Shown piece after piece: positions 34,845 through 42,234 of a DNA stretch of 64,000 nt. The position numbers and the translations under genes are program-made. Position 1 is the stretch's first letter. Each line of letters begins with the position of its first letter. The notes under the pieces are model-generated. The model saw only the letters and a list, made by a program, of their open reading frames with translations, was not told where the DNA came from and searched no databases. Origin of the DNA: a virus (lineage: Duplodnaviria > Caudoviricetes); IMG/VR virus record IMGVR_UViG_3300033066_002341, positions 938 to 64,937 of that record, one strand, 5' to 3'.

Positions 34845-35021
34845 ATGATTACTCAAGACACGATTGACAGATTAAATGACATCAACAACTTACGTTTGTT
34901 TTTTAACACTACGACGACGACTATCGGAACGCTTCCTGCGGCCCTGAGTAATGCTCAAACTTATATGGATTTGGTCATCAAAGAGTTGTCCCTAGATGTC
35001 TTGAAACGAGACGGACAATAA
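34845..35021 (+). CDS. 58-aa protein leading the patatin cassette (not in ORF track)
   Basis: MITQDTIDRLNDINNLRLFF...KRDGQ; its TAA abuts the patatin ATG. Confidence 0.55.
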   Translation: MITQDTIDRLNDINNLRLFFNTTTTTIGTLPAALSNAQTYMDLVIKELSLDVLKRDGQ

Positions 35022-36452
35022 ATGGCTGATCCCAATACACTCAGAATATTGGAATTAGATGGAGGGGGAGAAAGGGGGTATTTTTCGCTTTCCTGGTTTC
35101 AAAACTTTGTAACGCAATGGGGAATAAACCCAGGAGCAGTTGCTCAAAACTTTGACGTCATTTGCGGTACGTCCGTAGGAGGCATTATGGCTTTATCTTT
35201 AGCCTATGGAATGACTCCGACAGAGATGTTTCCCTTTTTTACACAACAAGGGCCTTATATTTTTAGTTTGAGCTCTCTTTTCCCTTCTTGGCGCCCCAAT
35301 GCCGCGACTAAAGTCGGATTAATTCTTGCGGATATCCCTTTTTATCAATCTTCTGGCTCTACTGCGAATCTTTATGGCTCTGGATTATTAGCAGCTACTT
35401 TGCAGAATACCTTTGGCACGGATACCCTTCAAAACTTGCAAACCAATGTGGTTATTCCTTCTTATAACAATGACACCAATACTTTTGTGTTGTTTTCCAA
35501 TGCAAATATCGGCGGCTTTACAGGACAAAATTATCTTATTAGTGATGTGGGGTTAGCAACTGGTTCTGCGCCTGTGTATCTCCCTGCATGGAATATTGGA
35601 GGATATAATTATATTGATGGGGGAGTTTATCAAAACAATCCTGCACAATTTGGCGTTACTTTGGGGAAAATCCTAAAGCCAAACGCTAATCGAATTTGTG
35701 TATTATCTGTAGGAACTGGACTTGGAGAAATAGGATTTGATGACTCTGGGAGTCCTGGTATTCCTTTAGCCAATAATCCATTGGCTACTAGCTTTTTATC
35801 TTCCACGGTCGTTGTAACCCTTCCGACTACTTCTATTCTTAGCAATGGGCAAAATGTAACCATCAGTGGAGCTACCGATACGGGCGGGATTTCAGCGATT
35901 AATTTGAATATTACAGCATCCATCTCTATCATTAATGGCACTTCGTTTTCTTATACTGCGAATGGAACCGCAACCTCTTCTACCACGGGGGGAGGTTCAA
36001 ATGTTCTCTTGGATTATATAGAAGAATTTACGAGAAGCTCATTGGGTAAAAGACGTTCTTTTCACCCTACTGGAATTACACCTGAACAATTTAAACAAAC
36101 TCCTATCTATAAAGAGATACTAAGAAAAAATCCACATATTGAATCCAAAGTTCAATCTTTTAGCGGCACAGATAGTTTATCCTTTGATACCATCCAAGCT
36201 ATTTTTAGCTTGTTTGAGATCGCGTCCACAGGAGGACAAGAATCCGTCGCTCAAGCGTTGCTCATGGAATCTGTTAATACATTAGATCAGCTCTATTATT
36301 ATAGATTTAATACTGTATTAGACCCCAATCAAAACACTGAATTAGATAATACAGACTCATCAATACTTTCATATTACGACGAATTAGCACTTAATTTATT
36401 TAATAATGATATTGATAATATTTCCGTCTTTATAGGACATCTCACAGCATGA
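35022..36452 (+). CDS. Patatin-like phospholipase with inserted beta-rich domain
   Basis: LDGGGERG (oxyanion loop), GTSVG (GxSxG serine) and IDGG (catalytic Asp); Ser/Thr-rich insert VVVTLPTTSILSNGQNVTISGA...SFSYTA. Confidence 0.93.
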   Translation: MADPNTLRILELDGGGERGYFSLSWFQNFVTQWGINPGAVAQNFDVICGTSVGGIMALSLAYGMTPTEMFPFFTQQGPYIFSLSSLFPSWRPNAATKVGLILADIPFYQSSGSTANLYGSGLLAATLQNTFGTDTLQNLQTNVVIPSYNNDTNTFVLFSNANIGGFTGQNYLISDVGLATGSAPVYLPAWNIGGYNYIDGGVYQNNPAQFGVTLGKILKPNANRICVLSVGTGLGEIGFDDSGSPGIPLANNPLATSFLSSTVVVTLPTTSILSNGQNVTISGATDTGGISAINLNITASISIINGTSFSYTANGTATSSTTGGGSNVLLDYIEEFTRSSLGKRRSFHPTGITPEQFKQTPIYKEILRKNPHIESKVQSFSGTDSLSFDTIQAIFSLFEIASTGGQESVAQALLMESVNTLDQLYYYRFNTVLDPNQNTELDNTDSSILSYYDELALNLFNNDIDNISVFIGHLTA

Positions 36453-38056
36453 AATTTATAACTGATTTCACCGATACTTTCATGAATCCGCAAGACGGGA
36501 CTTTATTGCTTTCAAGTTTTCCAAGTCTTGAGAAAAATTACACTTTTTTAGGGAATAACAGTAATCAAGCATTTGCCAGTCCCATCCTTATTGACATACG
36601 TTTGGAATTAATTCGACTTAAAAGTTTATTGGGAACAACACGCTTCATTATCCAAACCAAAATTGCCGAACTTTATAATGCACAAGCTCTTGATCAGCTA
36701 ACAACTGGTTTTCTTTATAATACAAATGGCGTGTTATCCATACAGACCCCAGGCTCTGGCAATCTTTCCTTGCAAGAGGGATATGTCTATGTGGGAAATG
36801 CTCAAAATATTGCAGTCGGTCAGCCTACGATTAATTTTAATAACCTGCCCGATCTTACCAATAAAAATTTGTTGATAGGCGACGCATCCAATAGAGCTGT
36901 AGAGACACTTACGCTTTTTATAGATAATCTTCCAAACTTAACAAACAAAAAAATATGGCGCGGCAACAGTCAGAATCGACCTGAAGAATCTGACGCCCTG
37001 ACAAACGCAGAAAATAGTTTAAGTCAAACAATTCAAGATTTAGCTAACCTTGCGAGCATTGTCAGCGCTATCTCTAATGCTGTTGATGCTCTCAGTAGTG
37101 CTGTAAATGCTATAGAAACAGGTATTGCAAGTATTGGTGGATTTGCAGCGATTCTTCTCTTACAAGTTCAGGTCTTAGGATTAATAGGTGCCGTTGCGGG
37201 CTTATCAAGCAGAGTTTCTGATTTAGAGACGGCAGTATCAACAATTCGGGGACAAATAACAGACATTTATAGCAAGATTACAGCTATAAATACTCGAATT
37301 GATAATCTTAGATTGAATACCATTCCAGCAGATGGAGACGTTTCTTTCTATAATTTTAGGCTAATCAATCTGGCCGACCCTGTTAATCCCACAGACGGCG
37401 TCAATCTTCGTTCTTTAAGTCATGCAATTGATAATATTACTCTTGATGGCTTTGTTCTTGGCAATTCTGATGAAAACGGTCTTATCCATACGACCCGCGG
37501 CCCCTTATGCTTGCTCACCAATATCCCCGCAGGGGGAAACGTTTCCATGAGTAATTATCGCATTACTGATCTTGGAGATTATGCTGCCGACAATGATGCT
37601 CTGTCCATTCAAGGCTTTTGGGATTTAATCCATAACCCTGATCTTTATGTAGCAAGAATTAACCCTGAACTTGCAATCATTGGCAATGTTCAGCAATTCA
37701 GCTTTAATCAAAACCGTAGCGTTTTTCAAATTCAAAACACATTTACGCCGACAAATCTCATCCCTTCAGAAAACATAAAAGAATTCAGAAACAGCAATAA
37801 TTCTGGCTATAGATTGGTTCAGGAAACATCATCTACAAGCAATAGCGGTGATTTTTACTTGGAGAAATTTTTAAATGGGGAAGAAGACGGCGAGAAAATA
37901 CTTTCGTTTAAAGAATCATCAGACGAATTGACTTTAGAGAAAATCCTGAATGCGAACAATCAAAGGATTGTGAACGTAACAGAAGAACCTGCGGCAGATC
38001 AGGATGCAATCTCTTTTATTTATTTATGGCGTGTACTTAATGATGAGGTGTTTTAG
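36449..38056 (+). CDS. Fibre-like virion protein with coiled coil and hydrophobic helix
   Basis: RLINLADPVNPTDGVN-type neck repeats (three), NLPDLTNK repeats, a long amphipathic helix; ATGA-coupled to patatin. Confidence 0.65.
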   Translation: MKFITDFTDTFMNPQDGTLLLSSFPSLEKNYTFLGNNSNQAFASPILIDIRLELIRLKSLLGTTRFIIQTKIAELYNAQALDQLTTGFLYNTNGVLSIQTPGSGNLSLQEGYVYVGNAQNIAVGQPTINFNNLPDLTNKNLLIGDASNRAVETLTLFIDNLPNLTNKKIWRGNSQNRPEESDALTNAENSLSQTIQDLANLASIVSAISNAVDALSSAVNAIETGIASIGGFAAILLLQVQVLGLIGAVAGLSSRVSDLETAVSTIRGQITDIYSKITAINTRIDNLRLNTIPADGDVSFYNFRLINLADPVNPTDGVNLRSLSHAIDNITLDGFVLGNSDENGLIHTTRGPLCLLTNIPAGGNVSMSNYRITDLGDYAADNDALSIQGFWDLIHNPDLYVARINPELAIIGNVQQFSFNQNRSVFQIQNTFTPTNLIPSENIKEFRNSNNSGYRLVQETSSTSNSGDFYLEKFLNGEEDGEKILSFKESSDELTLEKILNANNQRIVNVTEEPAADQDAISFIYLWRVLNDEVF

Positions 38057-41771: not shown

Positions 41772-41996
41772 ATGACCAAAATTATTTCAAACCCAGAAAT
41801 CTTAAAAAAAGTATCATCCTTAAATATCGAAGCTCAATTTGCTTTTCCAGAAGGAGATAGTCTTTTTAGATATAGCGGAGAATTAACGACTGAAGTTTCT
41901 GATGTTTTTAAGAAATATAAAAAAAGATTAGATAGAATTATATCTGATGCACAAGAGATTATCTCTGCTATCCCACCTCTTGAAACAAATGTATAA
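41772..41996 (+). CDS. Small hypothetical protein
   Basis: RBS AAGGAAG; 74 aa. Confidence 0.6.
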   Translation: MTKIISNPEILKKVSSLNIEAQFAFPEGDSLFRYSGELTTEVSDVFKKYKKRLDRIISDAQEIISAIPPLETNV

Positions 41997-42018
41997 AACG
42001 TAAAAAGGAGTATTAAAA

Positions 42019-42234
42019 ATGGCAAACATTGTCCCCAATATTGACGGAACGCTCAGCGTAGAAGCATTAACTGCCTTGTGGACTCAGGAAGTCTCCCCAG
42101 GATGCCTCAAAATTTTTGCTTATGATGGGCCTGAAACCCCTGCAATGAGCCAATTGGTTGCCGACCTACGCGCACGCTTTCAGGATATTAATGCTTATAT
42201 TGCGAAAATACTTGCTGATTTACCTGCTCAATAA
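42019..42234 (+). CDS. Small hypothetical protein
   Basis: RBS AAGGAG; 71 aa; last gene of the cassette. Confidence 0.65.
   Translation: MANIVPNIDGTLSVEALTALWTQEVSPGCLKIFAYDGPETPAMSQLVADLRARFQDINAYIAKILADLPAQ

Follow-up and report, generated by a model that had tools for sequence, protein, structure and literature searches.

Genes and features of the cassette

The window, that is, the whole stretch of 64,000 nucleotides analysed, belongs to the phage record IMGVR_UViG_3300033066_002341, a complete genome of 64.9 kb. The head operon lies on the minus strand, and its terminase (50763–52415), portal (46572–48950) and major head protein (32905–33807) flank a region, 34845–42234, in which ORF calling found seven closely spaced plus-strand genes (34845–35021, 35022–36452, 36449–38056, 38057–41488, 41502–41729, 41772–41996 and 42019–42234). 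The ORFs, the minus-strand flanks and the tight spacing confirm the original prediction of seven coupled genes counter-oriented in the head operon. From first to last the genes are joined by a TAA-ATG junction, an ATGA overlap, a TAG-ATG junction and gaps of 13, 42 and 22 nt. The cassette is inserted into the gap between two head genes and, opposite in direction to the head operon, is read from an upstream spacer of its own. This AT-rich spacer of 361 bp (34484–34844) separates the cassette from the divergent scaffold/capsid genes; it contains promoter-like hexamers, whose matches do not exceed shuffled expectation, and a tandem repeat with a unit of ~56–60 bp (34547–34646) that is absent from every related locus searched.

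The second gene (35022–36452) encodes a patatin-like phospholipase of 476 residues that matches PF01734 at E 7.5e-23 and 82.2 bits, against a cut-off of 27.7. Its GGGERG (residues 14–19; GGGxRG), GTSVG (with Ser51) and DGG (with Asp199) motifs are invariant across 59 homologues, so that the patatin is intact, as had been claimed, and is predicted to be a catalytically competent lipid acyl hydrolase. Neither a signal peptide nor a transmembrane (TM) segment was found in the protein. The core of the structural model has a pLDDT above 90, and Foldseek matches it with probability 1.00 to the plant patatin 1oxw and to the CBASS effectors CapV and CapE; TM scores by target of 0.67–0.79 to CapV, CapE and plant patatin place the modelled fold with the compact kind. 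The match to ExoU and VipD, including their large C-terminal targeting or cofactor-binding domains, is poor (TM 0.19–0.26, E 8e-6 to 6e-3).

The patatin carries an insertion of ~150 of its 476 residues, confined to one clade of the family, within which lies a Ser/Thr-rich domain of ~82 residues (35760–36011, plus strand; residues ~247–330 of the protein). Ser and Thr make up 32% of residues 245–335, versus 20% across the whole protein. The original prediction described this insert as being of the sort seen in tail proteins, and we found the same domain in tail nozzle homologues of related phages, at 40–63% identity and in one to three copies each. Its relatives resemble E1_FCCH and endosialidase beta-barrel domains, the endosialidase profile match being below threshold. 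The window's own copy has no Pfam match and is poorly modelled (pLDDT below 50), and no fold was obtained for it. Metagenome contigs returned no close patatin relative with the insert; the related locus L047 came from viral contigs.

The window's own nozzle gene (27187–28743, minus strand; phrog_3287) lacks the insert domain. Foldseek places its product closest to the Pa223 tail protein 9nwi_Y (2.5e-22) and to VP1 (2.7e-18), followed by SU10, Pam1, P22 gp10 and T7, and 9nwi_Y is also matched by sequence (6.7e-7). At a moderate model confidence (pLDDT 63, TM 0.43–0.49), the protein is modelled as a podovirus tail nozzle/hub of the P22 gp10 or T7 gp12 kind. The domain common to patatin and nozzle proteins is a mobile one, and patatins of the clade with the insert have acquired this small domain, which in related phages is displayed on the tail nozzle. 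The sharing gives a sequence-level hint of the enzyme's location.

The patatin stop codon overlaps the start of the proximal fibre gene (fibre 1, 36449–38056, plus strand; 535 residues) in the ATGA at 36449–36452. Fibre 1 has a conserved N-domain (about residues 1–100; profile E 8.4e-40), a coiled coil and T7-fibre-like motifs, and its C-terminal part (37649–37909; residues ~401–487) is a copy of the N-terminal domain of fibre 2, an arrangement also seen in the related locus L006. Inside the coiled coil lies an uncharged hydrophobic stretch of 31 residues (37118–37210; residues 224–254) with a Kyte–Doolittle 19-residue mean of 2.25. The long hydrophobic helix predicted for fibre 1 is thus present in this protein, but it is not a family trait, as four of five aligned relatives have ordinary coiled-coil heptads at that place. 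The distal fibre (fibre 2, 38057–41488, plus strand; 1143 residues) is in frame with fibre 1 and contains repeated beta domains, Gly/Asn/Ser-rich repeats and two ~150-residue repeats. Its description as YadA-head-like was not upheld, the resemblance to the YadA head repeats (PF05658) being confined to one stretch and below threshold (E 0.084, 13.7 bits; cut-off 25). We considered whether the two fibre genes are a broken single gene or are joined by read-through of the TAG; relatives have two genes as well, and L047 has the same stop-then-ATG, so the junction is ordinary coupling.

The remaining cassette genes are small. The stop codon TAA of the 58-aa ORF (34845–35021, plus strand) abuts the patatin ATG, and neither comparison with one positional counterpart nor BLAST against the loci tested revealed a relative of this ORF. 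Three ORFs of 75, 74 and 71 aa (41502–42234, plus strand), each with its own ribosome-binding site, close the cassette; relatives stand at the same cassette end in other loci, of the first in L003 and L028, of the second in L074 and of the third in L047. None of these four small ORFs contains a TM segment or a 19-residue window with a Kyte–Doolittle mean of 1.6 or more. Beyond them a hairpin with a 9-bp stem (42258–42287), read from the sequence and not reported by the terminator scan, is a possible two-way terminator between the cassette and a convergent 122-aa gene (42309–42677, minus strand). In MAnkyphage, L003, L049, L074 and L009, which have other backbones, the cassette ends in an ORF of ~114–131 aa; the 122-aa gene is a weak homologue of it and in the window lies on the strand opposite to the cassette.

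An invertible fibre segment of the Mu G or P1 C type was rejected, since the borders hold just AT-rich 23-nt arms that are 74% complementary, and the genome contains no serine invertase and no match to PF00239. Base composition decides nothing on the origin of the cassette, as its GC content (39.4%) is near the genome mean (40.3%) and the outliers are the head genes (46.5%).

The patatin–fibre pair as a portable block

The fibre N-domain directly follows the patatin at 70 of 72 distinct patatin 3′ ends (profile E 1e-8 to 1e-54), and the two genes overlap by a 4-nt (A/G)TGA in 64 of 72 distinct relatives. The family spans 154 viral-contig stretches and more than 340 protein clusters, and in nearly all relatives the pair sits within late structural operons. 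At least three unrelated backbones carry the pair, which occupies two different sites on the window's own backbone and is found in both orientations. Its carriers include phages with a terminase–patatin order (MAnkyphage and L003), HTVC023P-like phages (L006, L009 and L013) and the distinct backbone of L047, all of which have zero structural genes in common with the window beyond the module. In the patatin tree, phage patatins group in a well-supported clade separate from the bacterial patatins, and the different backbone types are intermixed. L074 and L075 contain a second, counter-oriented patatin–fibre pair. Fusions of patatin and fibre were absent among the listed near-length matches and the longer proteins (weak evidence).

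The closest backbone relative, a prophage in the genome G193, has an identical gene order (major head protein 57%, nozzle 48% and portal 41% identical) and no cassette; its homologues of 42690–43808 and 33827–34483 are just 70 nt apart. The comparison shows the cassette to be an add-on to the backbone. Because the patatin is joined to fibre genes as a portable block, its lipase activity is probably exerted at the tail. Metagenomes contain the module widely, and it moves between unrelated tails, which makes it a defined unit open to testing. Our search of the literature on patatin in environmental phages found nothing on fibre coupling.

The closest known counterpart is MAnkyphage_25.80, a phage of Megaira polyxenophila (OP381185). 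Its patatin is orthologous, with 40% identity over the core; its fibre gene overlaps the patatin stop and encodes a homologous N-terminus (38% over 52 residues); and distal small ORFs are followed by a ~123-aa ORF related to 42309–42677, which in the window is on the opposite strand. In contrast to the window, MAnkyphage has a T7-like backbone of 38 kb with the order terminase–patatin–fibre–portal, a single fibre of 1520 residues and a patatin without the insert, and the block runs in the same direction as its neighbours. Its record provides gene annotation only, and we found no functional test of the pair in the literature. MAnkyphage resides in the culturable alga Cryptomonas SAG 25.80, and proteomics of its particles is therefore feasible.

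A candidate lipase at the base of the tail fibre

We propose, with a probability of about 0.5, that in uncultured podoviruses this region serves as a portable adsorption module, with the lipase held at the fibre base on the virion. The module would comprise the intact patatin, a two-segment trimeric tail fibre, the three small ORFs as helpers and the nearby ~122-aa ORF. The lipase would be produced alongside the fibre in matched amounts, attach to the fibre base via the conserved fibre N-domain and be carried on the virion, a location we infer. At adsorption it would cut ester-linked acyl chains of the membrane reached by the fibre, and this hydrolysis would loosen the membrane for the short tail. 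Most simply, the target would be the outer membrane of the host bacterium. The proposal has circumstantial support in the near-universal translational coupling of patatin and fibre on several backbones together with the domain common to the patatin and the tail nozzle, although a shared domain and linked genes may also arise for other reasons.

We know of no tailed phage with a phospholipase on its particle, and the literature searched described none; if the proposal is true, the patatin would be a virion enzyme of a new type, cutting lipid instead of sugar. The K1F endosialidase, with its inserted beta-barrel domain, and the esterase and depolymerase tailspikes likewise tie a hydrolytic activity to the adsorption apparatus. 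Those enzymes are built into the spike polypeptide and degrade polysaccharide, whereas the enzyme of the window is a separate protein and a predicted lipid esterase.

A less probable but plausible explanation is that the patatin acts outside the particle, in lysis or egress. A late cytoplasmic lipase might degrade the bacterial inner membrane from within, like CapV, depolarising the cell and releasing the lysozyme, or might open the surrounding host vacuole after lysis; the fibre linkage would then reflect mere shared late timing. By analogy, a patatin without a signal peptide, whose nearest solved structures are CapV and CapE, CBASS effectors that degrade the cell membrane from inside, would fit such a role equally well. 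The genome encodes a canonical endolysin, a phage lysozyme with a hydrophobic N-terminal leader (5117–5644, minus strand; PF00959, E 1e-35), and near it just one small three-TM ORF as a holin candidate. Since this lysozyme is present, ~30 kb away, the patatin is not a stand-in endolysin. Phage WO, which has no endolysin, is proposed to have a putative lytic cassette adjoining its tail module and made of a patatin, a holin-like single-TM protein and an ankyrin protein (PMC9203015). WO infects an intracellular alphaproteobacterium and likewise encodes its patatin (~30% identical over the core) beside tail genes; the window differs in having a lysozyme, a cassette with neither a TM protein nor an ankyrin gene, and a patatin that overlaps a fibre gene. 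Against a lysis role, the patatin travels with the fibre and not with the lysozyme, the overlap is kept on unrelated backbones, the cassette has no holin-like protein, and a nozzle-type surface domain has no obvious intracellular use. An unregulated lipase made alongside structural proteins would also risk early lysis.

Host and alternative roles of the enzyme

The host is probably a translocase-positive intracellular alphaproteobacterium (an endosymbiont), on circumstantial evidence. The alphaproteobacterium that harbours the G193 prophage has a 2.0-Mb genome and encodes an ATP/ADP translocase, and the relatives of a ProP-like MFS transporter encoded in the window (12966–14255, minus strand) occur in translocase-positive genomes only (6/6, against a base rate of 50/401). 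Every one of the seven phage records that combine a related patatin with an assigned host is from Megaira or Wolbachia; for more than 95% of carriers no host is assigned. No phage-type patatin was found in cultured backbone relatives on free-living hosts or in four prophage relatives in translocase-negative genomes. This evidence ties the phage, together with MAnkyphage, to intracellular alphaproteobacteria. Among 185,579 species genomes there was one close prophage-carrier match, L017, a whole-phage-sized contig in a 'Bacteroidales' MAG bin, which we do not count as host evidence.

Given an intracellular host, the target could be a eukaryotic membrane: a virion-borne lipase would let the phage exit or enter the eukaryotic cell or its vacuole. 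We regard this as tentative, on a par with the lysis role. It is favoured by the probable host, by the Megaira and Wolbachia records and by the lack of the patatin in relatives on free-living hosts. Several ankyrin-repeat genes occur in 2 of 15 other cassette-bearing phage records, as in MAnkyphage, a suggestive marker of eukaryote association that was counted without a control set; the window genome has no ankyrin gene and no PF12796 match. On the other side, the prophage in the intracellular G193 genome lacks the cassette, which is hence not a general need of such phages, the family is large and mostly without assigned hosts, and the modelled fold differs from that of ExoU and VipD; substrate specificity, moreover, is not readable from sequence. 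The fibre would also place the enzyme at whatever it binds, normally a bacterium. If a eukaryotic target is true, the module would parallel the phospholipase that some animal viruses carry and would answer how endosymbiont phages cross the eukaryotic barrier, a question raised for phage WO.

The original interpretation thus stands circumstantially as to a virion lipase–fibre apparatus and an endosymbiont host, and its other option, a host-manipulation module expressed by the lysogen, is disfavoured by the position of the pair within late structural operons in relatives. The same position makes it very unlikely that the patatin is a captured CBASS-type effector, expressed from its own promoter in the lysogen, independently of late genes, as an anti-phage defence or a cyclic-nucleotide decoy. 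In favour of that reading, the phage is temperate (integrase, 14602–15759), the cassette runs counter to its surroundings from an AT-rich spacer of its own, and CapV and CapE are the nearest solved structures (PDB 8zr9, 9jeh, 9kh6 and 9iom; sequence E 1.7e-21 to 1.2e-8), sharing a compact patatin core and a Ser-Asp dyad at TM scores by target of 0.71–0.79. Unlike them, the window patatin has a ~150-residue insertion, belongs to a separate clade and neighbours fibre genes, with no CD-NTase partner (no PF18144 match to a SMODS cyclase across the 64.9-kb genome). Just as improbable is a maturation factor that modifies or helps fold the fibre by esterase or acyl-transferase chemistry and then leaves the particle: the gene has a fixed place directly before the fibre and is translationally coupled to it, but patatins are not, to our knowledge, protein-modifying enzymes, fibre 1 has no evident acylation site or lipobox, and fibre chaperones are usually encoded after the fibre, a place filled here by the three small ORFs.

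Architecture of the cassette and its fibres

The source record is 64,937 bp long and complete by CheckV, and the window covers nearly all of it. The terminase (50763-52415), portal (46572-48950), major head protein (32905-33807) and tail genes (21174-31512) all lie on the minus strand. Seven plus-strand ORFs (34845-42234) break into these head and tail genes, exactly as listed in the original prediction. The junctions within this cassette are, in order, TAA-ATG, an ATGA overlap, a same-frame TAG-ATG, and three gaps (13, 42 and 22 nt) that hold good ribosome-binding sites. An AT-rich spacer of 361 bp separates the cassette from the divergent scaffold and capsid genes, and at the far end a hairpin with a 9-bp stem (42258-42287) lies between the cassette and a convergent gene for a 122-residue protein (42309-42677, minus strand). 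Within the spacer, upstream of the scaffold and capsid genes, a unit of ~56-60 bp occurs in two tandem copies at 34547-34646 (GAAGCT..GCGCTTGGCAGTT ... CCCATGCCCGA); this repeat was found in none of the related loci compared.

In relatives, namely the Megaira phage MAnkyphage_25.80 (OP381185; MAnkyphage hereafter) and the loci L003, L049, L074 and L009, the cassette ends in an ORF to which the 122-aa ORF is weakly homologous. The closing ORF is on the fibre strand in all five and on the opposite strand in the window, and it may be the adaptor of the module to the tail.

Fibre 1 (36449-38056; 535 aa) consists of a conserved N-domain and a coiled coil, with T7-fibre-like motifs just under threshold (PF03906, 24.1 bits against 25.2; also phrog_2710). 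It was predicted to bear a long hydrophobic helix. An uncharged stretch of 31 residues is indeed there, with a Kyte-Doolittle mean of 2.25, but four of five aligned relatives have ordinary heptads in its place, and it is therefore not a family feature. The N-domain of fibre 2 (38057-41488; 1143 aa) is present as a second copy in the C-terminal part of fibre 1. Fibre 2 has a weak match to the solved tail fibre 23sh_r (E 2.4e-4) and also matches PHROGs of tail spikes and head fibres, while the YadA-head likeness proposed for it falls below threshold. We considered whether the in-frame TAG marks a break in a single fibre gene and rejected this, as relatives generally have two fibre genes and the same stop-then-ATG junction is found in L047, the locus with the closest patatin relative; the TAG is ordinary coupling.

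An intact predicted lipase sharing a domain with tail-nozzle homologues

The patatin (35022-36452; 476 aa) scores 82 bits against PF01734 (cut-off 27.7), and its GGGERG, GTSVG (Ser51) and DGG (Asp199) motifs are invariant across 59 aligned homologues. In the AlphaFold model the core has pLDDT above 90, with the insertion at residues 245-390 unresolved. By its motifs and fold the protein is an intact predicted lipase, having neither a signal peptide nor a transmembrane segment. CapV and CapE, which are lipases of CBASS systems, and a plant patatin are its closest solved proteins by sequence and fold alike (E as low as 1.7e-21; TM by target 0.67-0.79), whereas the eukaryote-directed effectors ExoU and VipD match poorly (TM 0.19-0.26). 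A profile search of the phage genome found no CD-NTase, so the locus is not a CBASS operon.

We searched with the insert region alone (residues 243-336) and found, besides insert-bearing patatins, other proteins (458-792 aa) that are not patatins and are encoded on contigs of phage size. The matches of 684-792 aa are homologues of the 518-aa window protein at 27187-28743 (phrog_3287, "virion structural protein"), and they carry one to three copies of the insert domain, ~82 residues long, at 40-63% identity. In two of them (P0134 and P0135) the copies are placed at points (about 113 and 381-386) where the flanking residues of the window protein are neighbours or five positions from each other. 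One domain copy exceeds the E1_FCCH cut-off (31.4 against 29.5 bits) and also has a sub-threshold match to the endosialidase beta-barrel profile; the window patatin's own copy has no Pfam match.

The model of 27187-28743 is of moderate confidence (pLDDT 63), and Foldseek groups it with hexameric podovirus nozzle and hub proteins, the Pa223 tail being best (2.5e-22), followed by VP1, SU10, Pam1, P22 gp10 and T7; by sequence it matches 9nwi_Y at 6.7e-7. The lipase of this clade has thus gained a domain that is carried, in related phages, on the tail nozzle, the site of fibre attachment. The insert-bearing patatins are monophyletic in the patatin tree (support 100/99).

The same domain occurs in further protein classes and is thus widely shuffled among the proteins of these phages. 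An uncharacterised class (P0138-P0146 and P0149; 458-481 aa) has two copies after an N-terminal part of ~200 residues, and a 193-aa ORF in L047 (17908-18489) has one.

A portable patatin-fibre unit added to the window lineage

The patatin has more than 340 relatives in metagenomes, at 47-79% identity, and 154 matching stretches in IMG/VR. Among 72 distinct patatin 3' ends with downstream sequence, the next gene starts with the fibre 1 N-domain in 70 (profile E 1e-8 to 1e-54), and the patatin stop and fibre start share a 4-nt (A/G)TGA overlap in 64. This coupled unit is found on at least three phage backbones. The first, in MAnkyphage and L003, has the order terminase-patatin-fibre-portal; the second, in L006, L009, L010 and L013, is HTVC023P/CRP-901-like, as in the window, with the unit following the homologue of 30026-30436; the third is that of L047, whose insert-bearing patatin is 79% identical. 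Apart from the module, the backbones other than the window's have no structural gene in common with it by BLASTP. In the patatin tree the types of backbone are intermixed, and the phage patatins group in a single clade separate from the bacterial ones (support 100/99). The fixed coupling of patatin and fibre domain, and its portability between backbones, are plain from these comparisons of sequence. A second, independent counter-oriented patatin-fibre 1 pair lies on a different backbone in L074/L075 (about 9200-11900); it comes with a 221-aa ORF and is opposite to the genes on both flanks.

Fibre N-domains usually track the tail on which they dock. In these phages the N-domain tracks the patatin instead, and mainly for this reason we infer that patatin and fibre 1 bind each other.

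A whole-phage-sized contig (L017; DAOQYW010000034.1, 35.7 kb) with the order terminase-patatin-fibre is binned into a "Bacteroidales" MAG. The stretch with identical patatin and fibre genes also occurs on a 36.2-kb metagenome contig, which makes the bin doubtful as host evidence.

In a sample of 401 genomes from the class to which an alphaproteobacterial MAG belongs, we found portal relatives in five, the best in G193 (42%, two copies). One G193 contig carries rpoD and several transposases (IS66, IS4-like, IS605) and is therefore chromosomal; at 41.8-67.4 kb (L138, L139) it holds a prophage with the gene order of the window (terminase 40%, portal 41%, major head protein 57% and nozzle 48% identical). 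In this prophage 70 nt separate the homologue of 42690-43808 from that of 33827-34483, and the homologues of 30026-30436 and 29427-30026 are adjacent; no phage-type patatin was found in the G193 genome. Hence the lineage has members that lack the module, members that carry it at one site and, in the window, a member that carries it at another, and by gene order the cassette is an add-on, out of place in the window. The module is oriented with the head genes at the one site and against them at the window's site. We found no border repeats around the cassette and no invertase in the genome that would account for its inverted orientation, and base composition does not settle the origin of the cassette.

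A second prophage copy lies on another G193 contig (L133-L135), with recombination genes 41% and 55% identical to those of the window. This copy seems to have been rearranged, with a nozzle homologue of just 185 aa and with the order interrupted by a 453-aa ORF without a window homologue.

The patatin and tail fibre of MAnkyphage are annotated in papers, and a patatin-based lytic cassette was proposed for phage WO (PMC9203015), which differs from the window cassette in every defining feature tested. We found no description of the coupled patatin-fibre unit in the literature. Three points are new here: the insert domain ties the lipase to the nozzle, the module is an add-on found at two sites and in both orientations, and there is evidence on the host.

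Host and possible role of the lipase

The phage carries a ProP-like MFS transporter gene (12966-14255, minus strand). All five tested genomes holding its relatives encode an ATP/ADP translocase (E 1e-169 to 1e-204), compared with none of 14 controls and 50 of the 401 genomes in the full sample; at E 1e-20 or better, six genomes have a relative and all six are translocase-positive. The best match is on the second phage-bearing contig of G193, a 2.0-Mb genome that encodes the translocase twice; the remaining four genomes with a portal relative are larger (3.1-4.0 Mb) and translocase-negative. Phages in culture with a related backbone infect free-living Pelagibacter, Roseobacter and Caulobacter, and none of them carries the patatin; in the phage collection a related patatin occurs in only seven records, from Megaira and Wolbachia. 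Taken together, the translocase, transporter, G193 and patatin evidence indicates that the host of this particular phage is probably an obligate intracellular alphaproteobacterium. Ankyrin-repeat genes are present in MAnkyphage and 2 of 15 other carrier records, and none was found in the window.

Within the sample of 401, every genome with MFS relatives is a small alphaproteobacterial one that is translocase-positive, and it holds one to four copies; phages of intracellular bacteria may carry this gene for nutrient uptake. The records of L070 (57,948 bp) and L073 (63,242 bp) are complete patatin-bearing genomes, each with a cluster of at least three ankyrin-repeat ORFs; MAnkyphage and phage WO also carry such genes.

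We propose that the lipase would bind the fibre base, be carried on the phage tail and, on adsorption, cut acyl esters in the membrane reached by the fibre. The chief alternative is that the enzyme serves lysis or egress late in infection and is at no point part of the particle, as would suit a CapV relative without a signal peptide; yet the gene is linked to a fibre and not to the lysozyme 30 kb away, the cassette has no holin-like gene, and the patatin bears a surface-type domain. The original prediction, a lipase aimed at eukaryotic membranes, is a sub-case of the tail-borne model that we consider less likely: the host evidence makes it more probable, and both the type of fold and the G193 prophage, which has no cassette, make it less so.

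The lysozyme (5117-5644, minus strand) has a hydrophobic N-terminal leader of secreted or signal-anchor type, and about 1 kb from it a 116-aa ORF with three transmembrane segments (6696-7046, minus strand) is a possible holin.
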